In this document: positions 5,221 to 46,119 of the stretch, piece by piece
Position numbering within the stretch: position 1 is the first letter of the stretch
How the letters are laid out: every line of letters begins with the position of its first letter
Source of the DNA: Candidatus Moraniibacteriota bacterium
GTDB lineage: Bacteria > Patescibacteriota > Minisyncoccia > Moranbacterales > DUUL01
Direction: 5' to 3'
NCBI GenBank assembly: GCA_041583775.1
Contig: JBFHFF010000001.1
Span: 94,676-158,675 of the forward strand
DNA: 64,000 bases
The notes under the pieces: generated by a model
What the model was told of the DNA's origin: nothing
What the model saw: the letters and a program-made list of their open reading frames with translations, nothing else
Database searches by the model: none
Translations under genes and position numbers: made by a program

Positions 5221-5303
5221 TTTGTGTTTAATATTATTACATTGAGATTTATTTTTACAAAATAGCAACTTCCAGCATTTTAAAAATCAAGGGAGGAAAT
5301 CCG

Positions 5304-5516
5304 ATGTTAAAAAACCTGAACATTCCGAGTCTAGAAAAAGTTTTTCCCATAATCGGAAAGGTATTGTACGCAGTAGCTCTATTATTAGCATTTGCGTTTC
5401 TTTTGTTTAGTGCTAACCAAAAAAATAACCACAGAAAAGTTGGACTCAGTCATTCAATGGCACTCGAAGATTTCATCATAAACATAAATGAGGAAAAGAG
5501 TTTAACGGAAGAGTGA
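5304..5516 (+). CDS. Small membrane protein (70 aa), unknown function
   Basis: Strong SD (AGGGAGGA) sits 6-7 nt upstream of the ATG. One TM helix (VLYAVALLLAFAFLLF). Followed by an intergenic region with hairpins. Confidence 0.4.
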   Translation: MLKNLNIPSLEKVFPIIGKVLYAVALLLAFAFLLFSANQKNNHRKVGLSHSMALEDFIININEEKSLTEE

Positions 5517-5850
5517 CATCTCGCAAGAATGCTTTTATTAAAGAATGCACTTCAAAGCTTTGATAATAAAGCTCTCGTGGATGATGGCTTTGTTTTATCC
5601 TGAGATATTCTCTTGGTGTCAGATTCTCCTGAAAATTACCGCATGAAAATATTACTAAATAATTTTACATATGAAATTACTGCGGATGTCAGAAACAGAT
5701 ATCTCAATGCCTTGAGGGAGTTTTACAAGGTATGTGATTTAGAAATTTCTTGGGTAGCTGGCATTGCTGGCTAACCCTACTCTGAACCATAAACTGTGGA
5801 AATAAGCCGAGTTCGAAAATTTTCAAACTCGACTTATTCATTTCAAAAAT

Positions 5851-5880
5851 AAAACAGGTCTTGCACCTGCTTTATTTTTT
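5851..5880. terminator. Bidirectional intrinsic terminator (stem caggt/acctg, U-runs on both sides)
   Basis: Hairpin 5855-5869 is flanked by an A-run upstream and a T-run downstream. It lies directly 3' of the minus-strand coupling-ATPase gene and 3' of the plus-strand small ORF. Confidence 0.55.
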
Positions 5881-5882
5881 AT

Positions 5883-8369
5883 TTATTTTGATAACTGTCT
5901 TAAATCTTTCAAACCAGCTCTTTTCCTAATTTCAGCTTCCACGATTTCTCTGTCTCTTCCATATTTATACCTTGACAACTCCTTAAGGGCATTTCGCATT
6001 TCGATACTACCTTTTGTTGGAGGATATGTTTTCATATCAAATGATGCTGAAGTTTTATTGTTCATTAGGAGCTTTGCAAAGCACTGATAGTTTGCCACAT
6101 TAATCAAGTCACTAGCATCAAACTCTGGGGCAAATTGCTTTTCAAGAAATTCTGCATCCTCTGAACCAACTCGAAATGCGCAAATAGAACCAACATTACC
6201 AAAAACGGCCTTGGAGATGTTTTCTGAAAGTTGTCCAATAAATTGATGTGCAACTATAAGTGCAAGTCTATACTTTCTTGCTTCTGCCAAAATCTGAGAA
6301 ATTGAATCAGTCGTGAAATTGTGAAACTCGTCTATATATAAATAAAAATCCTTTCTTTCATCTTCTTCCATATCAACACGAGAAAGTGCTGCCATTAACA
6401 ATTTACCAACAATAATCATTCCCAATAAATGACTGTTAATCTCTCCAATTTTCCCCTTGGAAAGGTTTACTAAGAGAATTTTTTGCTTATCCATAATATC
6501 CCTGAAATCAAAAGTACTCTTTTGTTGAGAAATTATAGGACGCATAATATCATTTGAAATAAATGTTGTAAGTTTTGATGTAATATATGGGGCAATGTTT
6601 TCCAAAGCAGCGTCTCCGCCTGCTTTTTCGGCCTCTTTTTCCCAAAAATCAACGACTGTTGCATCCTGACAACGCTTTAGTTTTTCTTTTCTAAATTCAA
6701 GATCACGAAAAACTCTCGGGACTTCCATTAATGTTGAACCAATATCTGGACTATCCATAACCAACAACATAGCATTACGCATATATTGCTCAAACATTGG
6801 ACCACCAGTTGATTTCAAATCATACAACTTGTCAAAAATAGCTAAGGTTTCATTTATAACAAATGTTTTTTGTTCTGGACGCTTCGGATCATATTCCATA
6901 ATATTCAAAGAAAATGGCCTTTCCATATCAGATGGATCAAAATAAATCACATCATCTGCTCTTTCTTTTGGAATATTTTCCAAGATATGATCAATCAAAT
7001 CGCCATGTGGATCAATAATGCACATTCCAGATTTCTTAGCATCCTGTTTTGCCATTTCTTCTATGAATGTTGATTTACCTGTTCCGGTTTGTCCTATGAT
7101 ATAAAGATGCCTTCTACGGTCATCCTCTGATAATCTCATTTCCGTTTTAGATCCTCTAAAGTCACTATATCCAACAGCGAGACCTTCTTTTGGTATATCT
7201 GCTGGAGGAGGAGCAATTTTAGATTTGAGCCAATTTATCTTTGGGGTTTCTGTGGTAGAAATTGGAAAATGAAAAATACTTGCCAATTCTTCAGTATCCA
7301 GTACCATCTTGTACCTGTCTGAAAAATTTCTAAAAATATAATCATAGGCGATTTTATGCGCATTTTTCGCCTTATTCCTAATTGCAATAAATTTATTCAA
7401 ACTTTCATCCTCAAACTGAACAAAGGCGTTTTCTATTGATGCCAAAATCATTTCGGCCCTCTCTTTTGTTGCAGCTGATGCAACTAATCGCACATTAGTT
7501 TCAAAATGCGCTTTTTTAACCTTAGATTCAAGCCTCGATATCACCTCTTGCTCTTCTGGTGTCAAGGAAATTGGTGTTTTTTCAGCAGCTTGTTCTTTTA
7601 CTGTCTTGCCCATAAGAACACCTGAAATATCTGAACCAAGATTCTTTGCAACAAGCCCCGTCTTTGACATTGAAGCTTCACCTAATCGTTGTCCTTGCTG
7701 CATTTGTTGAGCAGTCCTTATGCCTCTCTCTTTCCACTTCCTACTACTACGACGCAAAATAATTTGAATTGCCGCTCCTTCTTGCTCGTCTTCAAGTTTT
7801 GATAATGCATTTGCAATATTTTGCAAAGGATCTGATTCAAGATGTCTATATGTTCTTATCGGAAAAGAATCTTCCTTCTTAAGCTGTAAGCGACTTGCAA
7901 CAGTAACCCCATCTGGTCTAAATATTGTATATTCTGAAGCACTTTCAATGTGGGCAGCTGGATAGAAACTATGTATTTGTTTTTCAATAACCTCCTTAAA
8001 ACGAGCTGGCATAGCTACATAAAACACAATATTCTCACTATCAGAAGAGACTGCAATTTCAAGTGCAATATGCGGTTCTCCAAAAATAATTCTATGAAAA
8101 AAATCTCTATGTTGCGGTAAATCAGAAAGAGATGATAATAATTGTTCCATCTTGGAAATCTCTTCTTTTTCTCCAGCTCCTCTTGTTTCTGGGGATTGCC
8201 CATTTTGAGACTTTGGCTTTACCACCTTAATAACATCCAGTGTTTGGTTTAGGGATTGAGTTAAATCAGCCCTAAACCTAAGATATCTCCGCAGTAAAAG
8301 CCATCCACCAGAAATAAGCATCAACATTCCAGTGAAAAGCGAAAGCCCAAAAAACAAACTTTGCATCAT
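5883..8369 (-). CDS. TraD/TraG/VirD4-type type IV coupling protein-like ATPase (TrwB AAD-binding/DUF87-like P-loop), N-terminal TM anchor
   Basis: N-terminal TM helix, then a long linker, then Walker A HLYIIGQTGTGKST, the adjacent IIDPHGD motif, Walker B FYLYIDEFHNF and the C-terminal LALIVAHQFIGQL motif typical of the TraD/TraG C-terminal region. Confidence 0.7.
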   Translation of the reverse strand: MMQSLFFGLSLFTGMLMLISGGWLLLRRYLRFRADLTQSLNQTLDVIKVVKPKSQNGQSPETRGAGEKEEISKMEQLLSSLSDLPQHRDFFHRIIFGEPHIALEIAVSSDSENIVFYVAMPARFKEVIEKQIHSFYPAAHIESASEYTIFRPDGVTVASRLQLKKEDSFPIRTYRHLESDPLQNIANALSKLEDEQEGAAIQIILRRSSRKWKERGIRTAQQMQQGQRLGEASMSKTGLVAKNLGSDISGVLMGKTVKEQAAEKTPISLTPEEQEVISRLESKVKKAHFETNVRLVASAATKERAEMILASIENAFVQFEDESLNKFIAIRNKAKNAHKIAYDYIFRNFSDRYKMVLDTEELASIFHFPISTTETPKINWLKSKIAPPPADIPKEGLAVGYSDFRGSKTEMRLSEDDRRRHLYIIGQTGTGKSTFIEEMAKQDAKKSGMCIIDPHGDLIDHILENIPKERADDVIYFDPSDMERPFSLNIMEYDPKRPEQKTFVINETLAIFDKLYDLKSTGGPMFEQYMRNAMLLVMDSPDIGSTLMEVPRVFRDLEFRKEKLKRCQDATVVDFWEKEAEKAGGDAALENIAPYITSKLTTFISNDIMRPIISQQKSTFDFRDIMDKQKILLVNLSKGKIGEINSHLLGMIIVGKLLMAALSRVDMEEDERKDFYLYIDEFHNFTTDSISQILAEARKYRLALIVAHQFIGQLSENISKAVFGNVGSICAFRVGSEDAEFLEKQFAPEFDASDLINVANYQCFAKLLMNNKTSASFDMKTYPPTKGSIEMRNALKELSRYKYGRDREIVEAEIRKRAGLKDLRQLSK

Positions 8370-8395
8370 TTTTATTTTAAAAATTTATTTCTTTT

Positions 8396-8893
8396 TTATT
8401 TTATATCCTCCAATAAACCTTTTTTAATAAGAGCTTCCCTTGCCTGATCTACTGTTAAATTGTCGTGTACCTTGTCTAAGATATAATTATTGTTAATATG
8501 TTGTGCAACCTTTATTGCAAAATAAGGGTTTTTTTTGGAAGCTATTTCAACAATTTTAGCTATTTGATCGTCTGGATTTTGTAAAGAAGTTACATCCTTA
8601 GCATGGAATTTTACATGCTTTTCCTCATCTTCTTTTGTTTTTTGATTATCACTTTGTTGTGTTGTTTTGGCTGGAGATGGTGTATTTCCTATTTTTTCTT
8701 GAGCTTGCTCAATCGCAACTTCACTTTTGTGAACCATCTCTCGATTCCTTTCAATTAAATTTTCCAGTTTATTTTTTCCACTTCCCTGTTCTTTCTTAGC
8801 ATTTTCAGCATTTTCAGCATTTTTTAATTTTTCCACAAAGCTTTGGGCGCTATCTTCAACCTCTTGATTAATATCTAATTCCTGTTCTGGCAT
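8396..8893 (-). CDS. Acidic, low-complexity hypothetical protein (165 aa), co-operonic with the coupling ATPase
   Basis: ORF lies 26 bp upstream of the ATPase gene. E/K/Q-rich with an NAENAENA repeat. No TM. Confidence 0.5.
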   Translation of the reverse strand: MPEQELDINQEVEDSAQSFVEKLKNAENAENAKKEQGSGKNKLENLIERNREMVHKSEVAIEQAQEKIGNTPSPAKTTQQSDNQKTKEDEEKHVKFHAKDVTSLQNPDDQIAKIVEIASKKNPYFAIKVAQHINNNYILDKVHDNLTVDQAREALIKKGLLEDIK

Positions 8894-8932
8894 TTTTTTA
8901 CCTTATTAAATTATAAATCCTTTCTAAAAAAT

Positions 8933-9304
8933 TTATTCCTCACCAAATGATTCTGTCACATTTTCCACCTCTGACTCATTTCCTATAGCGTTATTCATAA
9001 ATTCATGCATCTCTTTTTTATATTTACCTATTTCGTCCAAAATAAGACTCTCCACATTAGGAAGATTTTCCTTCAAAAATAAATCAACCTCTTCCCCGCT
9101 TTCACTAGCAGAATTTATTACGCTGGCAAAATCTTCTTTTTTATTTTCAGGGAGTTCGGAAACTATTCTTAAAACTATTCTTTGTTGAATAATCTCTCCC
9201 ATTTGTATTAAAGTTTCCTCTCGTTGCTCTTTTGGCAGACTATCGATACCAAGTTCTTTTATTAAATCAACTTGAGCGGTTTTGATGTTTTCTTTTAAAG
9301 ACAT
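8933..9304 (-). CDS. Small acidic hypothetical protein (123 aa), co-operonic
   Basis: Separated by 11 bp from the upstream giant gene and 39 bp from the next gene. Acidic C-terminal tail. Confidence 0.5.
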   Translation of the reverse strand: MSLKENIKTAQVDLIKELGIDSLPKEQREETLIQMGEIIQQRIVLRIVSELPENKKEDFASVINSASESGEEVDLFLKENLPNVESLILDEIGKYKKEMHEFMNNAIGNESEVENVTESFGEE

Positions 9305-9315
9305 TTATTTTTTAA

Positions 9316-12300
9316 TTATTTTTTATCAAATTTTTCAATATATTCATTAAATTCACTTAATTCTTTAAGTAACTTCTTGTTTATAGTTTTACCCCCCTTG
9401 ATGTACGCAATAATTCTCTCACTAACGCTACAATCTTCCATACCTGGAATATTTTCGGTCTCCTTTCGAATTTCATTAGCAAGTAACATCGCTCTTGAAT
9501 GATCCAAATAAAATAATTTTTCTTCTACACTATCTGCCTTAAGTATCTCATTGTCATCAACTACAACCTTGATTTGTTTCGCAAAATCGCTCCACTTTTT
9601 GTCTTTAAAGGTGGTTGTGATTTCCTCTTCTGAAACTTTCATTAAACTTTCATCAATATCATCCCCTAATTGCTCAGGTACTTGAGGATTTGTTTTTTCA
9701 ACTTCAGACTCCACTCCAACTTCACCTAAACTCTCTCTATTGGTTTCAGCCGCCTTCTTTGGCTTTTCACCAACTTCCTCTTCTGGCTTTTCAGATTTAT
9801 TTTCTTCAGGAACTTCTTTTATTTTCGCTTCACGATGAACATTATCTCCACCTACTTCTTCTTTCTTGCTAACTGGAGCGCCTTCTTCAATAAATCTCTC
9901 ATCGTCTACATCAAAATTCACTGTGGGAGTTTTCTCTTTTGGCCAATGATCCATTCTTGCTTCAATCTTCCCATTCTCACCAATTGGTGCCAGTCTATCA
10001 ATTCCTTCTTCTTTTGCGATTACCCCTCCTTCTAGCGAATCACTGTTTTCTTGAAGAAATACTGGCTTTATTATCTTTGGTTTATAGTTCTCTTTTAAGG
10101 CATCTTCTAAAACAATTCTTCCCGGTTTTTTTATCGCCGTCTTATCTATTTCATCATAGACAATTCCAGCAACTCTGCCCATTCTTCCAGCCTCTCTGAC
10201 ATCAACAGTTCCTAGTACCTGCCTCACTTCTGGCGATAAACTTAAACTATTATTTTTCCAAGCAGCTACCGCCTCTGCTTCTGTTTTTGGGAAATCATCC
10301 AATTGTTTTAATGTCATCTTGCTCATCGCCCGCCAAGTAACATCTCCCTCCTTAATTTTTAATTCAACTAATCTTGAACTGAGCTCTTCCTTTGTTAAAA
10401 TTTTTGGACTGTTCTCTGCATCCGCTAGGACTTCTTTTTGATTTTCCAATTGAGAAGATTTTTGACCTTGTGATAAGCTATCGACACCCCCACCATCATC
10501 TGTCTGTTCATTTAATTTATTTCCGAAAAATTTCTCATGCTCTATTTGTGCACCAGGCAATGAATCAGTCTCTGTTTTTGCCCTAAGAATATATTCTCTT
10601 CCCCCAGCCTTTATGCGCTTAATCCAAAGACCTTCCGTTTCTTTAGAACTTCCTCCATGTTCTTCAATGAATTTATTATGAGCTTCTTCGCTATATTTTA
10701 ATTTAAATTCCTTATACGCATCAGTTTTCTTTAATCCCCCAGCCTCAAACTGTTCATCAATTTGTTCTAAACTAGCTTCTTTAAAATATTCATCTCTGTC
10801 ATTTCTGACATGCTCAATCCAAGCATTATTTGCTTCAATTTTAGTTCCATCATATCCTTCAACAAATTTGATATGAGCAGCCGCACTGTGCTCTGCTTGA
10901 AATTTCTTAAAAGCCTCAGTATCTTCAAATCCTGCCGTTTCAATTTTATTGTTCGTTTCTACAAATCGATTCTCCGGAGCTCTTTCTTTTGAATTATTTC
11001 CTTCTGGATATGAACCTCCACTCTTTGCATTAATAATCTGGGAATCACTCGATTCATTTACATCAAATGAACCAAATTCAGAAATTTTATTTTTTGCATC
11101 TATTACTCGATTTTCCCAAAAATTTTCTAATATTTCGTCATCTGCTCCGTTATGATCTTCGATAAATTTTGCATGCGCCTCTGGGCCAAATTTCCGTTCA
11201 AATTCCTCCAAAACCGGCTCTTTTACTCCACTTAATCTTAGTTTATTTATTGCATCCTCAAAAGATTCATTTTTAATATTAGCTAGACTTTCAATAGCAT
11301 CAGGTCTTTCTGTTGATGACTCAGGACTCGACACACTTGCTGCCTCAGCAACATTTCTTGTAGTTGTTGTATGATTCCCTGAATCGTTAGGAATTTCAGA
11401 AGTAAAATTGGGAATATCTGACCAATCCAAAAAAGCTCTGGCCCCACCCCCTACAACAAGCCCCGTAATTCCTGCCGCTGCCATAGCCTTAAGATTGTCA
11501 TTTCTCTCTATGTTCATTTTCTTTTGCACCATCGAAACCATATCAAGTTGACCACCCTTACTAAAATAATTGTCTATTGTTTTTTTCTCAATTTTAACCT
11601 TCCTTTCATCTCTTGTTGATTCAGTTCTATTTTTAACATCCCTAAAGGCTGCCGCACCAAGAGCTCCTCCAGGTAAACTTCTAACCACCTTCATTCCCAT
11701 TCTCGAAACTCCAACTCCTAATGCAGTACTAATTGCCCCACCTGCAACAAATGAACCAACTGTACCAACTACACCAGCCAATAATGTTCCATAAACGAGC
11801 TTCTCTTTTCTAGACAACTTTTTATATCCAGCCGATAAATTCTCAATAATACCCTTTTCACGCTCATTTAAAATCTCTTTCCTTGCATTATTTATCTCTA
11901 ACATTTTATTGATAAGGTCTTGCATTGGACTTATTTTCTCGACCATTTTCTCTCCTGAATCAGTTACAACCTCTGAATCAACAACTTTCTCCATAAATAT
12001 ATATTTTCTCATTAATTCATTTTTATCCTCACTATTCACCATTCCATGATCCAGGGCAATTTTTCTACTCTCAACTCTTGTTTGGATAAAATCGCTATGT
12101 GCTTGCTTAAAAGCACTCTCTGTCTCTTTTATTCTTTTCTTTGCTTCATACAATTCTTTCATCGCTTCAGCATCATTTCCAAGAAAAATTTTCATCCTCG
12201 CAAGACTTCTTTCAACAATCCCCAATCTATTTCCCTTTTTTTCATAATCTATTTGTGCGTTCTTCCAGTCTCGAAATGCCTCATTCATTTTCAAGTGTTT

Positions 12301-14343
12301 TTCTTTTTCGATATGATTTTCGTCTTTCTCTCCCACTTCAATTCCTGGTTCAGTCTCTATTTCATCTTCTGGTTTGTCTTTTGAAGTTTCTGTCTGTTCA
12401 GCATCCTTGACAATTTTCTCAAAATTTATTGATTCATTTAAGGTACCCGTTTCTTCTCCACGCCTTTCAAGTTCTTCTTTGTATTTTTTTATACTAACTT
12501 CAACTTCTTGAAACTGATTTTTTTTCTCTTTATTAGTTTTATTACTATCTAATAATAAATTGTTCCTGATTTCATTCAACTGCAAGAGTTCCTCCTGCAA
12601 AACAGAAGTTTCAACTTCTTCAAGATTTTCCTCAGATTTATTATTTTTTACCTCCTCTGTGTTCTCTTCTTGCTTGTATTTTTCTTCTTGACCACCCATA
12701 TTCTCCTCATCTTTTCTCCCAAAATCGTCTGTTCTGTCCATCCATTCTTGAAAATGAGTTCCTTGCTTCTTCAGTCTTTTTCCTCTTTCCTGATTATCAA
12801 TTATTTTTTCACCTTCTGTTTTATCCATCCATTCCCGAAAGTGAGTTCCTTGGGCCCTCAATGCCTTCTCCGTTGTTGTTTCTCCTGGACCTTCTTTTAT
12901 TTTCACCTCTTTTTTTAATTCGTTTTTTATCTCCGAACCTATAGCTGACTCTGTGCTAGGAGCTTCCTCGTTTATTCCCAATTTTTCCTTTGGCCAGTTA
13001 TTTTGAACTTTTTTTTCATTTCCAGAATCAAAAACTCCATCAACATTCGACTCTTTTCGATAACCTCCATTTAAAATCATCTGTCTCAATTCTTTAACTG
13101 AAACATACCTACCCTCTTTTTCTCCGGCAATTAAAATTCTAGCTTGATGTTGTTTACTTTGTTGTGAAAATTTATCTTTTTCAATTACAAAAGGCTTCAA
13201 TCCTCCCTGATTGCTTTTAAAAACAAATTCCTTACTTTTTCCAAACTCAGCAACAAAATCTTCTGCCCTCATTCCACCAGCTTCAACTTCGGGAATGACT
13301 TCTATTTCTGGATATTCTTCATTAATTAACTCTTCTAATTTATCTGGAGACATAATTTTTTCCCCACCAATATCCGTCCCTTCAACTTGAATTTCCCATC
13401 TATTCTGAGCTTTCTCATATAGATACTTCGTAATTTTAAGTTTTTTTATCCCATCCTTGCTTTTATGAACAGACCCAACCACACCAAAAATATTCATCAT
13501 ATCCTTAAGACTCAAAACCTCTCCGTTCTTTTTTTCTAGTGCACTTACCTCCATTGAGTCAATTTCTTTAAAAGATAATTCTTCTTTACTACCATCACCA
13601 CTACCTTCTTCCACTCTCTTAAAGTTCTTAAACAACTCTAAAAATTCTTTACCGTCCATTATTTCGTCATCAGAACCACTCTTCCAATCAGCGTCTAAAT
13701 TGATTACATTTACACCCTCCTCAACCATTGTTCCAGAGGGCAAAAAAGCAATATGAACTCTACCATTTTCATAACTAACAATTTTCATATGCTTCTTACC
13801 ATCCTCGCTAACATAAATCTCATTAGGATCTATTTTATGTAACTGAAAAAAATCCTCTCCAAAATTCTCTTCTTGGATTTCTACTTTTTTATTTTCAATA
13901 CCTTTCTTGTTATCTTTTTTTTGAACTTCAACCTTTTCTGTCTCCAACTCAACCTCTTCAATCTTTTTAATAAAACTTTCATCAACTAGACCCTCTACCT
14001 CACCCTTAACAATTCTCTCCAAACTAGAAAGTCTTTTACTTCTCAAAAATTCACAAATAACCGCATCTGTAGCTTGGGCATTTTCCAAATTCAAATCACC
14101 CGCCATTGCAGTTTCTTTTAACTTGGCAGCAAGCTCTGCAAGATCAATAATTAATTTTCCCTGAAGCTCCTTTCTTTCACCTGGAGAATGCTTCATCAGA
14201 TAATCGTTGATAACATCCTTAGAAAACTTCCTCTCAAGTACAGACACAACGCCATTTTTAATCTCCTTTCTTTGTTCTGTTTGCTCAAAATTTTCTACCT
14301 GCGAAGAACTTTCTCTTGATTCTTCTGTTGTTGTTTCTGACAT
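9316..14343 (-). CDS. Giant (1675 aa) charged protein with central glycine-rich TM segments and internal sequence repeats; unknown function
   Basis: Single uninterrupted ORF with no signal peptide. Central hydrophobic Gly-rich segments (LVYGTLLAGVVGTVGSFVAGGAISTALGVGV; AMAAAGITGLVVGGGARAF). Three repeats of the xFxxKxxxEAHxKFIE[DE]HxG motif and a duplicated GTHF[RQ]EWMD[KR]T unit. Confidence 0.7.
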   Translation of the reverse strand: MSETTTEESRESSSQVENFEQTEQRKEIKNGVVSVLERKFSKDVINDYLMKHSPGERKELQGKLIIDLAELAAKLKETAMAGDLNLENAQATDAVICEFLRSKRLSSLERIVKGEVEGLVDESFIKKIEEVELETEKVEVQKKDNKKGIENKKVEIQEENFGEDFFQLHKIDPNEIYVSEDGKKHMKIVSYENGRVHIAFLPSGTMVEEGVNVINLDADWKSGSDDEIMDGKEFLELFKNFKRVEEGSGDGSKEELSFKEIDSMEVSALEKKNGEVLSLKDMMNIFGVVGSVHKSKDGIKKLKITKYLYEKAQNRWEIQVEGTDIGGEKIMSPDKLEELINEEYPEIEVIPEVEAGGMRAEDFVAEFGKSKEFVFKSNQGGLKPFVIEKDKFSQQSKQHQARILIAGEKEGRYVSVKELRQMILNGGYRKESNVDGVFDSGNEKKVQNNWPKEKLGINEEAPSTESAIGSEIKNELKKEVKIKEGPGETTTEKALRAQGTHFREWMDKTEGEKIIDNQERGKRLKKQGTHFQEWMDRTDDFGRKDEENMGGQEEKYKQEENTEEVKNNKSEENLEEVETSVLQEELLQLNEIRNNLLLDSNKTNKEKKNQFQEVEVSIKKYKEELERRGEETGTLNESINFEKIVKDAEQTETSKDKPEDEIETEPGIEVGEKDENHIEKEKHLKMNEAFRDWKNAQIDYEKKGNRLGIVERSLARMKIFLGNDAEAMKELYEAKKRIKETESAFKQAHSDFIQTRVESRKIALDHGMVNSEDKNELMRKYIFMEKVVDSEVVTDSGEKMVEKISPMQDLINKMLEINNARKEILNEREKGIIENLSAGYKKLSRKEKLVYGTLLAGVVGTVGSFVAGGAISTALGVGVSRMGMKVVRSLPGGALGAAAFRDVKNRTESTRDERKVKIEKKTIDNYFSKGGQLDMVSMVQKKMNIERNDNLKAMAAAGITGLVVGGGARAFLDWSDIPNFTSEIPNDSGNHTTTTRNVAEAASVSSPESSTERPDAIESLANIKNESFEDAINKLRLSGVKEPVLEEFERKFGPEAHAKFIEDHNGADDEILENFWENRVIDAKNKISEFGSFDVNESSDSQIINAKSGGSYPEGNNSKERAPENRFVETNNKIETAGFEDTEAFKKFQAEHSAAAHIKFVEGYDGTKIEANNAWIEHVRNDRDEYFKEASLEQIDEQFEAGGLKKTDAYKEFKLKYSEEAHNKFIEEHGGSSKETEGLWIKRIKAGGREYILRAKTETDSLPGAQIEHEKFFGNKLNEQTDDGGGVDSLSQGQKSSQLENQKEVLADAENSPKILTKEELSSRLVELKIKEGDVTWRAMSKMTLKQLDDFPKTEAEAVAAWKNNSLSLSPEVRQVLGTVDVREAGRMGRVAGIVYDEIDKTAIKKPGRIVLEDALKENYKPKIIKPVFLQENSDSLEGGVIAKEEGIDRLAPIGENGKIEARMDHWPKEKTPTVNFDVDDERFIEEGAPVSKKEEVGGDNVHREAKIKEVPEENKSEKPEEEVGEKPKKAAETNRESLGEVGVESEVEKTNPQVPEQLGDDIDESLMKVSEEEITTTFKDKKWSDFAKQIKVVVDDNEILKADSVEEKLFYLDHSRAMLLANEIRKETENIPGMEDCSVSERIIAYIKGGKTINKKLLKELSEFNEYIEKFDKK

Positions 14344-14539
14344 AGATTTTTATAATAATCTTCAAGCAGCTTATTTTATGCTTTTTGTTTTTATTGATAC
14401 AAATTCAAATAAACAGTTTTGGTTTTAGATTCCAAACACTGAAATTATTATTAGTTTATTTAATGATATTATACCATACATTGTTTACAATACCAATCAA
14501 AACAAATATAATAAATAAAACTAACAACAAAAACGAAAA

Positions 14540-16189
14540 GTGAAAGAAAAAAGAAGAAAAAAATACACAGTAAACAACCTTACACCGACAATAAAAGTTT
14601 TTTTACTAAACAACAAAAGAGCTTTTTTCTCTATCTTTTTTTTGTTCATTTTAATACTGTCGCTTGCACTAAGAATATATCATCTGGACAAAGCACCTAC
14701 TGGAGTTTCCGAGAAAGAAGCAGACTTTGGTTTGCTTGCACTAAATTTAGAAAATGCTGGAATTATAAACTCCTTAGTCGAAAAAGATAGTGGCGTTTTC
14801 ACACTTTTACTTTTTCTTGGTTTTAAGGTTTTTGGAATCAATTTTTTCGGCTTAAGAATTGTGAGTGCTCTAATTGGCATATTAACAATTCTCGGCTTCT
14901 TCCTTCTTCTTGGGAAATTAAAATTTCCCCGCTCTCTGTCTTTACTGGGAACATTTCTCATATCATGCTCTTTTTGGCACATAAACCTTTCTCGCTTAGC
15001 CCTACCTGAAATCCTCATTCCTTTTTCCACTATTTGGTTTTCATTTTTTTTATTTTGCGGATTTTTTTCAAAAAAATATAAGTACTTCATCTTATCTGGA
15101 GCATTTTTTACATTGGGAGTTCTAGTTTACCCGCTAATGCTATTTTTAATTTTTATCCCGATCTTCTTTTTCTCTTTTTTTATTTTTCTAGACAAAAAAC
15201 TTTTATTAAGTTTACGACCTCAATTATTTCTTTTTATATTTTCAATATTATTTTTTTCGATTCCTTTATTTTTTCAAATCCAAAATAATCCTGGATTTTT
15301 TCGAAACAACTTCATTCAATTCGCAGACCCTTATGAATCAAGCACTTCCATCATAAAAAGCACCTTAGCATATCTGGGTTCTTTTTTTTACATAAACAAC
15401 ACCCTCCAACTCCAGAATAAGGATTTTTTACCAGCCTTTCCACTTGCATGGTTAATTCTATTTATTTTTGGTTTCTTTTTGTCAGCAAAAAATATTACCC
15501 TGACAATCTTAGGCTCGTTAAAAAATAAAAGTATCCCAAAAAATATTCATGCATCTATTCTTGCTCAATCCATCTTCTTTGTGGCAATTTTAACTGGTTT
15601 ATTAAATTCAAAACAAAGTCTCAGCTCTGAGCATTTCTCTTTAATAATGCCAGCAATTTTTATCTTCTGTATAATCCCACTTGAATACCTCTTGGAAGTA
15701 TATCAAAAACTAAGACTATCTATTAGAATTTCACTAAAAAAATGGCGTTGGAATGTTATGCAAATCTCAATGTTAATCTTATTACTAGCAATCATCCTGA
15801 CTGGTTTTTCACAGACATATTTATATTTTGGAATCTTCCAAAAAGAATTAAATGCGAGACACTTATTACAAAAAAAGGATACTGACTTTGGAAAAATAAT
15901 CAAAAGCATTAACAGGGAAAAAAACAACTTTATTATATTTTCCGGAGATATTGCTTCTACGGAAAATTTAAAAACTATCGAATTTTCTGGCTTTCCTGAA
16001 ATTGAAAACTATACTTTCGTTCACTCTCAAGAAGATTTCCCACAAATTAATTGTGAAGATTCCCTGGTGGTTTTTTATGACTCAAATGAGTTGCTACGAA
16101 AACAATTTCAAAAACAATGCCCTTTAAATAATTCTCAAAAACAATTTTATTCTAATGGCAAACAAACTTTTTGGACTATGAAGGAATAA
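14540..16189 (+). CDS. GT-C fold glycosyltransferase, ArnT/PMT-like (polytopic membrane protein)
   Basis: At least 10 TM segments. N-terminal RIYHLDKAP...EKEADFG loosely matches the first-loop DE motif of the GT39/GT83 family. The start appears to be GTG. Confidence 0.45.
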   Translation: MKEKRRKKYTVNNLTPTIKVFLLNNKRAFFSIFFLFILILSLALRIYHLDKAPTGVSEKEADFGLLALNLENAGIINSLVEKDSGVFTLLLFLGFKVFGINFFGLRIVSALIGILTILGFFLLLGKLKFPRSLSLLGTFLISCSFWHINLSRLALPEILIPFSTIWFSFFLFCGFFSKKYKYFILSGAFFTLGVLVYPLMLFLIFIPIFFFSFFIFLDKKLLLSLRPQLFLFIFSILFFSIPLFFQIQNNPGFFRNNFIQFADPYESSTSIIKSTLAYLGSFFYINNTLQLQNKDFLPAFPLAWLILFIFGFFLSAKNITLTILGSLKNKSIPKNIHASILAQSIFFVAILTGLLNSKQSLSSEHFSLIMPAIFIFCIIPLEYLLEVYQKLRLSIRISLKKWRWNVMQISMLILLLAIILTGFSQTYLYFGIFQKELNARHLLQKKDTDFGKIIKSINREKNNFIIFSGDIASTENLKTIEFSGFPEIENYTFVHSQEDFPQINCEDSLVVFYDSNELLRKQFQKQCPLNNSQKQFYSNGKQTFWTMKE

Positions 16190-24837: not shown

Positions 24838-25863
24838 CTAATTACAATTATAACAAACATCCCAATGAGTATCCTCTCTTGCATAAATATTACCATCGCT
24901 ATCTTCATACATAACAGCGCCATCACCTCGAACGCCAGCAGGAGTAAAATTTGCCACAATATAATTATTAACTGCTAGTGTGTCTTCTATGTCCACTTTG
25001 TAACCATTCGCATGAGAAAATGTTGCCGTAGTATTATGCACAGTTGATGTCTCTGCTCCACCAGTTATGATAATTGGAGCTCCAACCTGACTTTGAAAAT
25101 CAATCACACCTTGAGTAGTAGCTGGCAAAAGATTTGACACATTGGTAGCACCAGGGCTTGATTCCCAAACGGTAATATCATATGGAATCAAAGCATCTCT
25201 CGCATTTTGTTCATTCAAATCACTTGACACACTGCCAGTTGTTCCTGTGGTCCCCGTTGTTCCTGTTGCTCCTGTTAATCCAGTTGTTGCCAATACAGCA
25301 GAGCTTGGAGCAGCAGTATCAAAAACACTATCACTAACGCATTGAAATTCATACCAGCGTCCGCCAGAACCAACTCCAAGAAAAGACTCATTAGCAGAAA
25401 TAAAAACCAAAATAGTATAAACAAGTAACCAAGAAAGAAGAAATCCCGCAAAACCCATCAGAGTTTTTGAAATAATTCCCTTAGCGATTGTTACTGTTCC
25501 TGGATTTCCAGCTGACACTAGATAGGTAACCCCTCCGATCGTAAGAGATAATAAAGCTAATATAATTATCCAGGCAAACATCAAATCAAAAATATTCTTT
25601 ACCATTATAAGCAAATGGCAAACCGTGCAACTTTTTTGTTCGTCATAAGGAGTCCTGCTGTCATCGCAACTTCTTCCGCAAGGCACAATAGCTCTGTCAA
25701 ATTGCAAAATACTCACACCAGCTATTCCTTCTGAAGGAGCCTTAGTTCCAGCACAATCAAGGGCTTTAGCTGTTAAAGGAGCGCCAAAAAAACATCCCGC
25801 AAAAAGAAAGATTGCCAATCCCGAGAAGAAAAAATTTCTGAGATTTTTAATTTTTATTTTCAT
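24838..25863 (-). CDS. Secreted Cys-rich two-helix membrane protein with VirB2/TrbC-like topology, (GTT)n linker and C-terminal possible M15-like zinc-peptidase motif
   Basis: Signal peptide with lipobox-like LFAGC. Six Cys in CGRSCDD...CTVC. Two hydrophobic helices separated by a short loop (IFDLMFAWIIILALLSLTIGGV / LMGFAGFLLSWLLVYTILVFI). Linker TGLTGATGTTGTTGTTG. C-terminal SHANGYKVDI fits HxxGxxxD, with a later DTHWD. Confidence 0.5.
   Translation of the reverse strand: MKIKIKNLRNFFFSGLAIFLFAGCFFGAPLTAKALDCAGTKAPSEGIAGVSILQFDRAIVPCGRSCDDSRTPYDEQKSCTVCHLLIMVKNIFDLMFAWIIILALLSLTIGGVTYLVSAGNPGTVTIAKGIISKTLMGFAGFLLSWLLVYTILVFISANESFLGVGSGGRWYEFQCVSDSVFDTAAPSSAVLATTGLTGATGTTGTTGTTGSVSSDLNEQNARDALIPYDITVWESSPGATNVSNLLPATTQGVIDFQSQVGAPIIITGGAETSTVHNTTATFSHANGYKVDIEDTLAVNNYIVANFTPAGVRGDGAVMYEDSDGNIYAREDTHWDVCYNCN
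25235..25288. repeat. Imperfect 9-bp tandem repeat (6 units, consensus ccNgttgtt) inside CDS 24838..25863
   Basis: Units are ccagttgtt, cctgtggtc, cccgttgtt, cctgttgct, cctgttaat and ccagttgtt. They encode the Gly-Thr-Thr linker on the minus strand. Confidence 0.7.
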
Positions 25864-39911: not shown

Positions 39912-42900
39912 TTACTCTGTTAATTTATCAGGATCCTCATCTAATCTTCGTCCGATTTGTTTGATTTTGTCAACATAATCAATTTCCGTAATTACATGCG
40001 CAACTTCATCAAGTGTAGTTTCACCTCTTAGAATGTGCAATATTCCGTCTTGTCCCATTGTCAGCATTCCCTCTTCAATGGCTTTTTCTCTAATTTCAAT
40101 TGTAATTGGGTTTGTTGTTAAAAATTTCTGCATATTCCTACCGACTTCCAATACCTCCGTAATCGCAACTCTTCCTTTAAAGCCAAGATTGTGACATTTA
40201 TCACAGCCAATTGGCTCAAAAACTTTATTCGCCGTTTTAGGGATATCAACTTCTATTTTTGAAGAGATACTATCCAAAACCTCCTCTATAATTCTTTTCT
40301 CCTCAGGTTTCATATCTCGCTCCCTCTTACAATGAGGACAAAGCGTTCTAACTAATCTTTGCGCAACAAAACAATTAGTTCCCGAGGAAAGATCTGACAT
40401 AGAAACACCCATATTCAACAACCTTTGCACCGAACCAGCAGCACTATTAGTGTGTAATGTTGTTAAAATCAAGTGACCTGTTAAAGCAACTTTGTAAGCG
40501 GCGTTGGCACTTTCAGAATCTCTTATCTCTCCTACCATTATAATATCAGGATCCTGTCTTAAGATAACCCTCATAGCGCTCGAAAAAGTATATCCGTCAT
40601 CTTCTTTCACTTGTGTCTGTAAAATTCCTTCCATTTGATATTCAATTGGATCTTCTATTGTTATAACTTTGAGCTTTGGATCTTTAAGATAATTCAAAAG
40701 ACTATACAAAGTGGTTGTTTTACCACTGCCGGTTGGTCCTGTGTCCATAATAATCCCATTTGGCTTTGCAACATTTCTAAGTATCTTCTCAAGATTATAA
40801 GGATTCATATTTAACTCGGCTAATTCTGTCACCTGAACACTTTGACTCAAGAGCCTCATAACAATAACATCCCCAAAACCACCTAAGATTACAGATACTC
40901 TAACATCTATTGATTCCTCCCCTGACTCCCTTTCTTTATTTGAATAAACAATTTTAAACCTTCCATCTATCACCCCTTCTCTCTTGCCTGTCTTTACTCC
41001 CATTAGATTTTTAATCTCATTTAAAACAGTAAGATAATCATTCATTGATAGAAGAGCAACATCATGCAAAACTCCATCAATTCGATATCTGATTTTAAAT
41101 TTTTTCAATCCAGGCTCTACATGAATATCACCAGCACCTGTATACACAGCTCCAATCAAAACATATCTCACCAATTCCTTCGGGGGGAGGGTAGAAAATA
41201 ATTCTTCAAATTCTTCGTAATTGTCTTTCACTTTCAACATTTCCTCCAAGACATCATCTTTGATGAAAATTCCACGCGCCAAAGATTGAACAACTATTTT
41301 TTCATATAAATCAATTAGATATTCTCCTTTTCCAACAACGCGTTGCAATTCTTCAATCGAAGTGACTCCGGAAACTGACTTCAAAATTCCATCCTGTTCC
41401 AGAGTAATCATTCCGTTCTCTAGCGCTGCACTCCTAATTTCATCCTCTGGAGCCATTTTTTCAATCGCTTCCTTAATTTCATCTGTAATAACAAGTATCT
41501 CAAAAATACCAACGCGCCCTTTATAGCCAAGTCCATGACATTTAGCACAACCCTTTGGCTTCCAAAGTTTATCAATGTGCTTAGGAATCGAAATATCTGC
41601 CTTAGGAGAAATAAGCGCAAGCATTTTTTTTATCATATCAATAGTTTCGCTTGCTGGTACATATTCTTCCTTACAATGTGGACATAGACGCCTCAAAAGA
41701 CGCTGGGCAACAAAAGCATTTACTGCGGGCGCAATCAGGTTGGGCTTAACTCCAAGATCAACAAATCGTCCAATTACACCACTAGCACTATTTGCATGTG
41801 TTGTTGAAAGCACTAAATGTCCAGTCAAAGATGCGTGAATAGCAATCTCTGCAGTAGATTCATCTCTAATTTCTCCAACCAAAATTATATCTGGATCTTG
41901 ACGCATAATCGCTCTTAATCCATTTTCAAAAGTATACCCTTTTGAATCTTCAACTTGTGTCTGACTTACGCCAGGAACTTGATACTCAATTGGGTTTTCA
42001 ATACTAATAATTTTTTTATCAACAGAATTTAAACGGTTTATTAGAGCATAAAGAGTTGTAGTCTTTCCACTTCCCGTCGGTCCTGAGTTAATTATTGCAC
42101 CTTGTTTTTTCTCTGACTCATTTACAAGCCATTCATAGTTTAAACCTTCTAGTCCCATCTTACTTAAAGACAAATCGTTGATACTTTGACTAAGTAAACG
42201 GACTACAATGTTTTCACCAAAATTTCCTGGCAAAACTGAAACACGAAGATCCATCGCTGACTGACCCTCTCTTTCAACAGAAAAACGACCGTCTTGAGCA
42301 ATGTCACGCACATTTATCATCATTTTCGAAAGAACCTTTACCCTCGAAACAATCGTTGGATATATATGTATCGGAAATGATGCAACTGTCTGAAGAACGC
42401 CATCAATACGAAACCTTAAACGAACTTTTCCTGTCTGTTGAGGTTCGAAATGGATATCCGAAGATTGCAATTTAATTGCACCAGCAAGAATCATATTCAA
42501 AACCTTGGTTACTGGAAGATCTCGAATTTTTCTATCCATATCCAAAACTCCTTTTGTTTCATCCTCAAAAGCTGCTAATTCCTCCCCTGTCAAACCAGCT
42601 CTTAGTGTATCAAGAATTACACTCAGATTCTCCTTTTCATATTCTTGCCAAGCTCTTTCTATTGAAGACTGTGACACCACAAAAAGCTCAACCCTCATCC
42701 CATCATCCTCTAAATCAGTAATAAAATCTCTAACTTTTCCACTTTCAGGATTAGTGGTAACTATCTTAATTGATCTTTCTAATTTATGAACGACTGCAAT
42801 TCCCAAATTTTTTGCTGTTTCCTTATCAATAAATTTAACATTTTCTTGATCAATTGGAAAAATGTTTAAATCTAAGTAAGGAAGATGCATATCCTTTGCA

Positions 42901-43220
42901 AGTTTCGAAGCCTCTTCTTCCTCAGAATCCCTCCTTAAGTGGGTTAATGTTTTCTGAACTCCTCCTCTTCTAGCAAAATTAATAGCCTCTTTGTTCTTTT
43001 TCTTCAACTCAAGCAATCTAGCTCTTTCTTTTTCATTCTCTAATTCTCTTTCTATTCGTCTTTTTTCACGAGCCTCTAAATAGCGCTGTTCCCTTTCTTC
43101 TGGAGATTCGTCTTCTTCATAAACAACTCTTTCCACATCTTTATCTGCATTTGTTTTAACAGTTTGCGAGCTATCATCCACAACAGCATCTCCTTGATTT
43201 TGTTTTTCTTCTTCACTCAT
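39912..43220 (-). CDS. Tandem-fused double PilB/GspE-type (type II/IV secretion/pilus assembly) ATPase, 1102 aa
   Basis: Contains two complete units. Each unit has a T2SSE N-domain, Walker A (SGPTGSGKTTTLYAL / TGPTGSGKTTTLYSL), Asp box, Walker B (DPDIILVGEIRD / DPDIIMVGEIRD), His box (GHLVLSTTHANSA / GHLILTTLHTNSA) and a tetracysteine motif (CPHCKEEY...CAKCHGLGYKGR / CPHCKRERD...CDKCHNLGFKGR). Acidic N-terminal extension. Confidence 0.85.
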   Translation of the reverse strand: MSEEEKQNQGDAVVDDSSQTVKTNADKDVERVVYEEDESPEEREQRYLEAREKRRIERELENEKERARLLELKKKNKEAINFARRGGVQKTLTHLRRDSEEEEASKLAKDMHLPYLDLNIFPIDQENVKFIDKETAKNLGIAVVHKLERSIKIVTTNPESGKVRDFITDLEDDGMRVELFVVSQSSIERAWQEYEKENLSVILDTLRAGLTGEELAAFEDETKGVLDMDRKIRDLPVTKVLNMILAGAIKLQSSDIHFEPQQTGKVRLRFRIDGVLQTVASFPIHIYPTIVSRVKVLSKMMINVRDIAQDGRFSVEREGQSAMDLRVSVLPGNFGENIVVRLLSQSINDLSLSKMGLEGLNYEWLVNESEKKQGAIINSGPTGSGKTTTLYALINRLNSVDKKIISIENPIEYQVPGVSQTQVEDSKGYTFENGLRAIMRQDPDIILVGEIRDESTAEIAIHASLTGHLVLSTTHANSASGVIGRFVDLGVKPNLIAPAVNAFVAQRLLRRLCPHCKEEYVPASETIDMIKKMLALISPKADISIPKHIDKLWKPKGCAKCHGLGYKGRVGIFEILVITDEIKEAIEKMAPEDEIRSAALENGMITLEQDGILKSVSGVTSIEELQRVVGKGEYLIDLYEKIVVQSLARGIFIKDDVLEEMLKVKDNYEEFEELFSTLPPKELVRYVLIGAVYTGAGDIHVEPGLKKFKIRYRIDGVLHDVALLSMNDYLTVLNEIKNLMGVKTGKREGVIDGRFKIVYSNKERESGEESIDVRVSVILGGFGDVIVMRLLSQSVQVTELAELNMNPYNLEKILRNVAKPNGIIMDTGPTGSGKTTTLYSLLNYLKDPKLKVITIEDPIEYQMEGILQTQVKEDDGYTFSSAMRVILRQDPDIIMVGEIRDSESANAAYKVALTGHLILTTLHTNSAAGSVQRLLNMGVSMSDLSSGTNCFVAQRLVRTLCPHCKRERDMKPEEKRIIEEVLDSISSKIEVDIPKTANKVFEPIGCDKCHNLGFKGRVAITEVLEVGRNMQKFLTTNPITIEIREKAIEEGMLTMGQDGILHILRGETTLDEVAHVITEIDYVDKIKQIGRRLDEDPDKLTE

Positions 43221-45432: not shown

Positions 45433-46119
45433 ATGACAAATCCCAAAGATAAAGATTTAGAAAAAAAGATTTTAAAACAAGAATTAGCCGAGACAAACAA
45501 AAGACTATTGGCAACACTTGATTATGTTGTAACACTGGAGGAGAGGTGCGCCAGCTGGAAAAAAATAGCAAGAAAATTCCAGGAGATGGCGTTGATAGAC
45601 GGATTAACAGAGGTGCCAAATCGAAGATTCTTCGATATAACATTCGATGAAATCTTCCAGAAAAGGCTTGCTGGGACAGAAAAAATTGCAAGAAAAAGAA
45701 GCAGTGACAAAAATCAAGGACCACTAACATTACTGTTAGTAGATATAGATTTCTTCAAGCCGTATAATGATGTCTCTGGTCATCCAGCTGGAGACAAGGC
45801 TCTTCGTCAGGTAGCCTCAGCAATGAAGAGTTCTTTACGAAGCAATGACTTCTTAGCTAGATACGGCGGAGAAGAATTTGTCGTAATTCTTCCCAATACA
45901 AGCCATACTGAAGCTCAACTTGTGGCAGAGAGAGCAAGGAAAGCTGTCGAAAATCTTGGAATCCCACACCCGGGCTCTGGGACAAGCGAAGTTGTAACTG
46001 TCAGCATTGGGTTGGCCGCTCTCTCGGGAGAACTCTCCCCAGAAGAATTTCTGGAGGCGGCCGACAAAGCCTTATACAATGCCAAGAGGAAAGGGAGGAA
46101 TTGCGTTTATTACGATTAA
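45433..46119 (+). CDS. Diguanylate cyclase (GGDEF domain, intact GGEEF site) with N-terminal coiled coil
   Basis: SD AAGGAG lies 7 nt upstream. LLLVDIDFFKPYNDVSGHPAGDKALR and RYGGEEFVVILP (active-site GGEEF). Strong terminator at 46128-46170. Confidence 0.85.
   Translation: MTNPKDKDLEKKILKQELAETNKRLLATLDYVVTLEERCASWKKIARKFQEMALIDGLTEVPNRRFFDITFDEIFQKRLAGTEKIARKRSSDKNQGPLTLLLVDIDFFKPYNDVSGHPAGDKALRQVASAMKSSLRSNDFLARYGGEEFVVILPNTSHTEAQLVAERARKAVENLGIPHPGSGTSEVVTVSIGLAALSGELSPEEFLEAADKALYNAKRKGRNCVYYD

Follow-up and report, generated by a model that had tools for sequence, protein, structure and literature searches.

Organization and conservation of the operon

The 64-kb window analyzed here (the whole stretch of 64,000 nucleotides, from contig JBFHFF010000001.1 of a Candidatus Moraniibacteriota bacterium) contains a four-gene operon built around a membrane-anchored ATPase, which is tentatively read as a type IV coupling complex made up of three partner proteins and a type IV coupling protein (T4CP). 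The first gene (9316-14343) codes for a giant protein of 1675 aa and is followed by the genes for a 123-aa protein of the DUF5663 family (8933-9304), a 165-aa protein named S165 (8396-8893) and, at the end of the operon, the 828-aa ATPase (5883-8369). All four open reading frames (ORFs) are on the minus strand and tightly packed, with intergenic gaps of 11, 39 and 26 nt in this gene order, as had been described in an earlier note made from the letters of this DNA alone (four minus-strand genes, 11-39 bp apart). The same note characterized the two small proteins as acidic and the giant protein as charged, in agreement with their net charges (-6 and -15 for the small proteins, -81 for the giant one).

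The operon is syntenic in about 80 Moranbacteria species. Among 88 loci surveyed the order large ORF, DUF5663, S165, ATPase is almost constant, with an S165 homologue immediately 5' of the ATPase gene in 84 of them and a DUF5663 protein in 75, always directly 3' of the large ORF, so that the co-conservation on which the earlier note had made its proposal of a functional module depend is indeed found. One of these loci (L008) keeps the four-gene order despite different flanking genes.

The ATPase is a coupling-type motor with a VirB4-like N-terminal domain

The ATPase has a single predicted membrane-anchor helix at its N-terminus (residues 1-40; 8250-8369, minus strand). Residues 1-30 are hydrophobic (Kyte-Doolittle maximum 1.73 at residue 1), also in the consensus of an alignment of 36 orthologues, and structure prediction modelled residues 2-40 as one long helix; hydropathy and model therefore both give this protein the N-terminal transmembrane (TM) domain that is found in most T4CPs. 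T4CPs usually have two N-terminal TM helices, whereas this ATPase has one. The anchor is followed by a DUF8128 domain (residues 62-395; 7185-8186, minus strand), which has a fold like that of the VirB4 N-terminal domain and is not a barrel, and by a P-loop motor (residues 396-745; 6135-7184, minus strand) that contains Walker A (G426-S433), Walker B (D680/E681) and an AHQ motif (707-709), after which the protein ends in a C-terminal tail. The motifs GQTGTGKST, IIDPHGD, YLYIDEF and LIVAHQ, reported by the earlier note together with the N-terminal anchor, are all present and their columns are invariant across the 36 orthologues, as are the catalytic residues of the motor (mean column identity 0.78-0.87), and the motor can be aligned to TrwB in the regions around Walker A/IDPxGD and Walker B.

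An all-alpha insert (residues 499-627; 6489-6875, minus strand), which may correspond to the T4CP all-alpha domain by its position, is composed, in the predicted model, of nine helices between strands 474-477 and 631-635. Its column identity (0.85) is as high as that of the motor and it includes an invariant TGGPMFEQY motif. Because the insert is as conserved as the catalytic core, its binding partner should be conserved too, suggesting an adaptor, the giant protein's conserved core, the secretion machine or DNA; that the insert binds the giant protein in its variable parts is unlikely.

The nucleotide-binding domain, which contains the Walker A and B motifs, is the only domain conserved in all T4CPs (PMC7431656), and it is present in this ATPase. 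In Pfam the protein passes the thresholds of TrwB_AAD_bind (40.2 bits vs a cut-off of 20.5) and T4SS-DNA_transf (31.8 vs 20.1), and also that of DUF87 (33.3 vs 23.2), a model of the shared P-loop core. The NCBIfam equivalog and subfamily models (TraD, TraG, CD1115) are not reached, the best being conju_CD1115 with 36.3 bits against a cut-off of 250 and every other model staying well short of its own cut-off, which places the ATPase in the superfamily and in the Pfam family and in no named equivalog. When a profile of the 36 orthologues was compared with solved structures, TrwB was the best match by sequence (E 2e-7), followed by DotL and then by HerA. The VirB4 signature is absent (TIGR00929 16.6 bits vs a cut-off of 643, no match to CagE_TrbE_VirB or AAA_10), and the ATPase is thus a protein with the two-domain layout of VirB4 and the sequence signatures of a T4CP. 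Identity with HerA was rejected, since the NCBIfam HerA models give at most 15 bits against a cut-off of 800, there is no HAS-barrel and the operon has no nuclease gene, and so was identity with FtsK/SpoIIIE, whose motor signature the ATPase lacks. The family evidence supports the assignment to the TraD/VirD4-type coupling proteins, and not to HerA, FtsK or the partition ATPases, as the earlier note had proposed on its motifs; the best match to one of these other families that would have spoken against it did not occur.

A number of representatives of the ATPase family are much longer (P0161, P0163, P0168-P0173 and P0178, 1,400-2,000 aa) and carry low-complexity C-terminal tails of 600-1,200 aa that are rich in proline (11-24% Pro). 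Several of these tails are alike near their C-terminal end, which in P0170 reads ..GEVYVDERGNVIVGE, and they are reminiscent of the long tails with which TraD and DotL bind their partners. Pro-rich low-complexity tails make up the extensions of most of the long variants (1,100-2,000 aa), none of whose C-terminal extensions matches the core profile of the giant protein.

Relatives on plasmids and phages

Full-length homologues of the ATPase (23-28% identity over 80-94% of the protein) are found on plasmids from Bacillus, Clostridium, Streptomyces/Embleya, haloarchaea and Sulfolobus, and further full-length relatives with the VirB4-like N-terminal domain are present in other Bacillota, Actinomycetota and haloarchaeal plasmids. 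Two examples are one from a linear Embleya plasmid (NZ_CP108778, WP_331738717) and another from a 27-kb Bacillus subtilis plasmid (NZ_CP154917, WP_345805471); they are 27% identical to the window ATPase over the full length (E 1e-80) and their N-terminal domain is homologous to DUF8128 (hhalign 96.6%, E 6e-10). In both plasmids the gene is directly beside a Replic_Relax relaxase, and a VirB4-type ATPase (AAA_10, P-loop_TraG, TraC_F_IV) is encoded separately in each of these clusters, in addition to TcpC in the Bacillus plasmid and to TrbL-, PrgI- and NlpC/P60-like genes in the Embleya one. A relaxase-adjacent gene accompanied by a separate VirB4 is the position of the T4CP in monoderm conjugation, which argues that the T4CP assignment is right.

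The window ATPase shares with these plasmid T4CPs the N-terminal membrane anchor, the homologous N-terminal domain, a Walker A followed by IDPxGD, Walker B and probably an all-alpha insert. It differs from them in its context, because the plasmid genes adjoin the relaxase, VirB4 and TcpC/TrbL, none of which is found in the 64 kb around the window gene, which is instead tied in an operon with three partners and is under housekeeping-level constraint. Genetic linkage to a relaxase or a type IV secretion system (T4SS), one of the marks of a T4CP, is therefore absent from the window and was seen only in the distant plasmid relatives. The origin of the ATPase is best explained by descent from the T4CP of monoderm conjugative elements.

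Full-length homologues with the VirB4-like N-terminal domain and the motor (21-24% identity) also occur in lytic SPO1-like Bacillus phages and in phage G (phrog_5156), such as SPO1 gp27.4, the SP8 protein annotated as 'VirD4-like' and phage G gp156. We know of no function for the T4CP-like ATPase in these phages.

The type IV secretion genes of Patescibacteria

T4CPs far from virB4 are already known from this phylum, where they are the norm. The survey of Quinonero-Coronel et al. 2025 (PMC12102498) counts 5,713 VirD4-type T4CP homologues, spread over 2,918 of the 3,035 Patescibacteria genomes, and only 148 of these homologues are near virB4; VirB4 itself was detected in fewer genomes (2,417), and relaxases are almost absent. 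According to the same survey, the T4CP homologue of S. epibionticum, which may or may not be of the DUF8128 type, is dispensable and the other T4SS genes are essential, and the authors consider a repurposing of the T4CP possible, given this non-essential homologue. The orthologue of the window ATPase in L037 is KKP90548.1, which is listed in Table S3 of that survey as a T4CP (t4cp1, 90.9% coverage, VirB4 proximity No). The window ATPase is thus of a known kind, catalogued in the phylum, and an orphan T4CP as such has been published; both belong to one gene family and relaxases are missing in both cases. The passages of the survey that were searched are silent on the genes next to the T4CP and on its VirB4-like N-terminal domain, and they mention neither a fusion with S165 nor a hypervariable partner (both described below). 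Taken together, the co-conserved operon, this N-terminal domain, the fusion and the hypervariable partner amount to a new variant, no description of which was found in the searchable literature, where no mention of DUF8128 or DUF5663 was found either.

The genome of KKP90548.1 contains seven VirB2 genes, VirB3, TrsD and VirB4 as genes 729-751, the T4CP being gene 918. The genomes of other operon-carrying relatives are also VirB4-positive, with the exception of that of L035; the operon-carrying genomes that lack VirB4 are incomplete assemblies. Woesebacteria genomes have a T4CP without VirB4. Since relatives with the operon have VirB2, VirB3, TrsD and VirB4 elsewhere, the lack of channel genes is true of the window and not of these organisms, and the earlier note's idea of a minimal secretion module without a channel holds only locally.

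S165, a putative accessory subunit of the ATPase

S165 belongs to no Pfam family and a PDB profile search with it was empty. Its C-terminal helical domain (residues 94-164; 8402-8614, minus strand) shows the conserved pattern ..LVDLAxxKGVxHAVKVAxHxxDNYxLDxxHDxL.. (alignment A3). Of the 150 best representatives of the ATPase family, 18 carry this domain as an N-terminal fusion. A jackhmmer search started from residues 61-150 of a fused protein (P0135) recovers all 84 free-standing S165 copies. The fusion of this domain to the ATPase, a classic type of evidence, indicates a direct functional link, suggesting that S165 is an accessory subunit of the ATPase. In another fused protein (P0187) the S165 domain is followed by a hydrophobic stretch of about 50 residues, with room for two TM helices, which would place the fused domain on the motor's side of the membrane, that is, in the cytoplasm.

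Most S165 orthologues start with a conserved acidic motif, NLEPIEExDLxLExK (alignment A3; for example L037:9387-9821 and L003:9498-9923), that is absent from the S165 of the window and its closest relatives and that may be a short docking motif for another partner.

The giant protein and its DUF5663 companion

The giant protein evolves so fast that among 5.8 billion proteins it had two matches, itself and one 38%-identical orthologue from a genome whose ATPase is 91% identical. Nothing was found for it in Pfam (VirB6 included), NCBIfam, PHROGs or PADLOC, and the equivalent large ORFs of relatives span 293-2033 aa. The only widely conserved part is a core of about 200 aa (residues ~790-985; 11389-11976, minus strand), composed of a YxKLS..KK motif, a Gly/Ala-rich hydrophobic segment of about 30 aa (~849-879), a charged spacer of about 70 aa and a second Gly-rich hydrophobic segment (~961-982), and its jackhmmer profile matches 42 loci. 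Hydrophobic segments in the middle of the protein, typically two and about 100 aa apart, are present in 63 of 70 distinct large ORFs located 5' of DUF5663, and they persist even where sequence similarity is lost; by hydropathy, the giant protein of the window has only two or three such segments, weakly hydrophobic. No N-terminal signal sequence was seen, though no predictor was run.

The earlier note had called this product a TM/repeat protein. The Gly/Ala-rich segments are there, and regular-expression and hidden Markov model (HMM) domain matches locate three degenerate repeats of about 65 aa (F..F..AHxKF[IV]ExHxG; residues ~1035-1267, 10543-11241, minus strand), a unit that occurs 2-4 times in the orthologues L010, L006 and L001. 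Two QGTHFxEWMDxT motifs are also present in the giant protein of the window. The term 'repeat protein' is, however, only weakly true, because self-BLAST finds no long internal repeats.

When the core profile (A5) was compared with PDB, the best matches were the membrane-inserting hydrophobic regions of alpha-pore-forming toxins of the ClyA family (MakA, Nhe L1 and ClyA), at non-significant values (E 0.03-0.5). These matches are treated as driven by composition and as a lead at most; they may hint that the core is a membrane-insertion hairpin.

The 123-aa protein encoded directly 3' of the giant gene matches Pfam DUF5663 with 25.4 bits (cut-off 23.7) over profile positions 1-83 of 84. All 69 matches of this profile are stand-alone proteins of about 100-140 aa, those with a named source coming from Moranbacteria or unclassified bacteria, and the search gave no informative fusions; its best PDB match, the coiled coil of GpsB, is non-significant (E 0.02). 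DUF5663 is the only sequence family of Pfam, NCBIfam or PDB found for any of the three partner proteins, which family scans did not find outside the Patescibacteria relatives of the window.

In one locus (L087) a second pair of large ORF and DUF5663 gene lies 3' of the ATPase (12644-14533, 629 aa with the giant core, and 14579-14914), beside the upstream pair. This additional copy implies that the two genes behave as a unit, and the pair seems able to duplicate as a cassette.

Evolutionary rate and distribution

The ATPase is the slowest-evolving gene of its neighbourhood, slower even than TsaD: in four relatives its identity is 91/84/82/69%, that of TsaD 82/72/70/59% and that of Lgt 74/67/58/47%, and in the same comparison the giant protein is 38% identical, or 26-46% within the core only. 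The flanking genes (PMT, response regulator, TsaD, Lgt, DUF4012) are kept both in the relative with 91% ATPase identity and in the one with 69%, so the possibility raised by the earlier note, that the operon is a fragment of an integrated conjugative element (ICE), is not borne out. In a scan with one genome per species, close relatives turned up in at least 563 species-level genomes, and the best 80 of these are all Moranbacteria or Patescibacteria metagenome-assembled genomes (MAGs); at a wider scale, 5,738 clusters (50% identity) match the ATPase family at E<=1e-30. The IMG/VR collection of 2.9 million viral contigs gave only 8 distant matches, to the motor alone. The best explanation is a vertically inherited chromosomal operon of Moranbacteria.

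Many MAGs with operon copies of 56-66% identity (L012, L014, L019, L020, L023, L039, L069, L087 and others) are titled 'uncultured Bdellovibrionales', 'Micavibrio sp.' or 'Bathyarchaeia archaeon', titles that probably reflect mislabelling or bin contamination and not the real distribution of the operon.

Flanking signals and genomic neighbourhood

A promoter-like site on the minus strand (14468-14496; TTGGTA-17 nt-TATAAT with an upstream TG, that is, an extended -10; 10/12 matches in a consensus scan) lies about 125 nt 5' of the giant gene, and a divergent one is on the plus strand (14484-14512). A terminator-like hairpin (5846-5880, stem 5855-5869), with an A-run and a T-run on either side, is located just 3' of the ATPase stop codon. 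The terminator and the divergent promoter region that the earlier note had placed at the two ends of the operon can thus be located; both promoter-like sites are consensus matches only, and the hairpin is no more than suggestive, because terminator-like sites in the region (3) are not above the number expected from shuffled sequence (4.6). Promoter-like sites are in modest excess over shuffled sequence (43 vs 28.3 +/- 4.8).

About 660 nt (5221-5882) separate TsaD from the ATPase terminator, with a sole ORF of 70 aa (5304-5516), which has a hydrophobic segment, and a second hairpin (~5806-5838). In L006, a close relative, this position is taken by a gene for 156 aa that runs on the opposite strand.

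A Pfam scan of the other window ORFs (at least 100 aa and not overlapping a longer ORF) found no relaxase, integrase, VirB4, VirB6 or VirB8-10, and the whole window, AT-rich and of uniform composition and GC content, contains no tRNA gene and no Rfam match. The earlier note's statement that no relaxase, integrase, tRNA or VirB channel gene is near is therefore valid for the 64 kb, where the hallmarks of an ICE or conjugative plasmid (relaxase, integrase or att site, mating-pore genes nearby) are missing. The neighbours that match a family are housekeeping or envelope genes, including Lgt, TsaD, PMT-type glycosyltransferases, Ddl, aminoacyl-tRNA synthetases (SerRS), MreB, a MurA-like protein, DnaJ, RuvB, UvrD and a PilB-like ATPase.

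Four regions of the window contain proteins of their own interest. The VirB2-like candidate of the earlier note (24838-25863, minus strand, 341 aa) has a signal peptide, a Cys-rich stretch and two hydrophobic helices, which are the part that matches Pfam T4SS_pilin, at 23.5 bits and so just below the cut-off of 26.6. The protein has a C-terminal extension of about 170 aa with a Thr/Gly-rich linker, and its gene stands alone between the genes of seryl-tRNA synthetase and a class II (D/K/N-type) aminoacyl-tRNA synthetase, far from any virB4. The PilB/T2SSE-type ATPase (39912-43220, minus strand, 1102 aa) matches Pfam T2SSE in two stretches (715 bits) plus MshEN, has P-loop matches near residues 372-410 and 819-866, and looks like a tandem or fused double secretion ATPase. 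In the region 54023-63545 (minus strand), the gene of a protein of 2490 aa, in which Kelch repeats and FN3 domains are numerous, is directly 5' of, and on the same strand as, a MacB-type ABC transporter pair (ABC_tran 55261-56097; FtsX/MacB_PCD 54023-55264), and it may code for a giant surface protein with a dedicated exporter. Finally, two adjoining GGDEF (diguanylate cyclase) proteins (45433-46119 and 46339-46995, plus strand) suggest that this reduced Patescibacteria genome encodes cyclic di-GMP signalling.

A proposed type IV coupling complex and its alternatives

The reading that is favoured, at somewhat less than an even chance, is that the operon encodes a type IV coupling complex, in which the T4CP would be joined by an adaptor, by a partner that resembles a chaperone and by a polymorphic protein, either as cargo or as a partner in the membrane. 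The ATPase would assemble at the cytoplasmic membrane, where S165 would dock on it through its conserved C-terminal helical domain, acting as an adaptor or regulator. The DUF5663 protein would bind the giant protein and might, like a secretion chaperone, shield the Gly/Ala-rich hydrophobic segments of the latter. The giant acidic polymorphic protein, as cargo or as a membrane-inserted partner, would be recruited by the motor, which would pass it to the T4SS of Patescibacteria (VirB4/VirB3/TrsD/VirB2), encoded at a distance from the operon.

DotL is an established case of a T4CP that works together with auxiliary proteins and chaperones (PMC12857230), and the overall arrangement is analogous to that of the Legionella Dot/Icm coupling complex (DotL, DotM/N/Y/Z, IcmS/IcmW). 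It is an analogy only, because S165, DUF5663 and the giant protein have no sequence similarity to DotM, DotN, IcmS or IcmW, and no homologue of these or of LvgA was found among the three partners. In addition, the adaptors of DotL bind its long C-terminal tail, whereas here the fusion puts S165 at the N-terminus of the ATPase. Another likeness is to the chaperone pairs of other secretion systems. Type III secretion (T3SS) translocators with class II chaperones and type VI secretion (T6SS) effectors with Eag chaperones are proteins with hydrophobic segments that are served by chaperones. The giant protein and DUF5663 share with such pairs a large signal-less protein with an internal hydrophobic hairpin (here a putative one), a small acidic neighbour and the ability of the pair to duplicate, although no homology was detected.

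Several observations weigh against this reading. None of the three partners resembles a known T4SS adaptor, chaperone or effector, and Sec/YidC could simply insert a protein with internal hydrophobic segments, which would then remain in the membrane as a resident partner. Effector delivery accounts for the extreme conservation of the ATPase no better than a housekeeping role does. T4CP homologues are present in more Patescibacteria genomes than VirB4 (2,918 vs 2,417), the T4CP occurs without VirB4 in some genomes, among them the operon-carrying L035 and likewise Woesebacteria, and the T4CP homologue of S. epibionticum, dispensable in an organism whose T4SS is essential, behaves differently from it in transposon sequencing (Tn-seq), which makes the two functionally separable (PMC12102498).

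The last three points, together with the small fraction of T4CP homologues near virB4 (148 of 5,713), are also those that favour the main rival, the minimal system of the earlier note, in which the ATPase is a stand-alone membrane translocase that operates without a VirB4 T4SS, its ring and the core of the giant protein forming a minimal device for export, insertion or DNA handling. VirB4 proteins are generally without a TM helix of their own, and the window ATPase lacks the VirB4 sequence signature, its plasmid relatives coexisting with a true VirB4; its own anchor and its VirB4-like N-terminal domain mean that it combines features of both T4SS ATPases, and its conservation above that of TsaD also fits a machine of its own. 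This possibility is nevertheless unlikely, if well worth keeping in mind, because one TM helix per subunit and two or three weakly hydrophobic segments are a poor basis for a channel, most operon-carrying genomes have VirB4 and those lacking it are incomplete assemblies, and the closest plasmid relatives work inside full T4SS clusters; we also know of no precedent for a T4CP working alone, which counts against it. A bolder form, which we consider rather improbable, is that the DUF8128 ATPase is a hybrid in which both T4SS motors are joined (its anchor resembling VirB3, its N-terminal domain being that of VirB4 and its motor bearing T4CP signatures) and that in Patescibacteria it would run a self-contained, VirB4-independent machine for exporting the giant polymorphic protein or inserting it into the cell's own envelope or that of the host, with S165 as built-in regulator and DUF5663 as cargo chaperone. 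The core-chromosome context, the synteny with PMT glycosyltransferases, TsaD and Lgt, the slow evolution of the ATPase and the presence of T4CP homologues in 2,918 of 3,035 Patescibacteria genomes could instead indicate a housekeeping role unrelated to secretion, in which a membrane-anchored motor acting on DNA or protein would serve in division, in the handling of the chromosome or in assembling the envelope, and the giant acidic protein would be its scaffold in the membrane. T4CPs are members of the FtsK/HerA superfamily of double-stranded DNA motors, and the marginal match of DUF5663 to the division protein GpsB points in the same direction, but that match is non-significant, the ATPase is structurally distant from FtsK, and a scaffold would not be expected to vary between 293 and 2033 aa or to lose similarity outside a core of about 200 aa. 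A housekeeping motor is accordingly given little credence.

An anti-phage defence module based on a HerA-like ATPase is very improbable. PADLOC matches only the ATPase (mad8 and a weak HerA), covering the shared P-loop motor, and none of the other three proteins, so that the full gene complement of a MADS/HerA system is not there; neither a nuclease, Sir2 or methylase nor any other effector is encoded in the operon, and it is single-copy, syntenic and under strong purifying selection in about 80 species, whereas defence islands are typically patchy. Scarcely any weight is left for a decaying fragment of an ICE or prophage. The relatives of the ATPase on conjugative plasmids, in SPO1-like Bacillus phages and in phage G would be in line with such an origin, but relaxase, integrase, tRNA and VirB genes are all missing from the window, as are repeats, GC content is uniform across it, relatives with only 69% ATPase identity have the same genes at the flanks, the ATPase keeps all its catalytic residues and evolves more slowly than TsaD, and the viral contigs gave just the 8 distant motor-only matches. 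The PADLOC result, the rate of the ATPase and the viral-contig search effectively exclude these two readings.

Significance

If the hybrid reading were true, the operon would be a new minimal protein-translocation system at the interface between episymbiont and host, and its ATPase a living intermediate between VirB4 and VirD4. More generally, the VirB4-like N-terminal domain that the Patescibacteria T4CP has in common with those of the Bacillus and Embleya conjugative plasmids bears on the divergence of the two T4SS motors. For the role of the orphan T4CP in Patescibacteria, the locus offers a fixed set of three partners for testing, the S165 fusion being evidence for one direct interaction and the giant protein a candidate cargo or partner that evolves very fast, as one would expect where a protein meets a host. 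Work on this operon is relevant both to the few cultivable Patescibacteria and to the homologous plasmid T4CPs.

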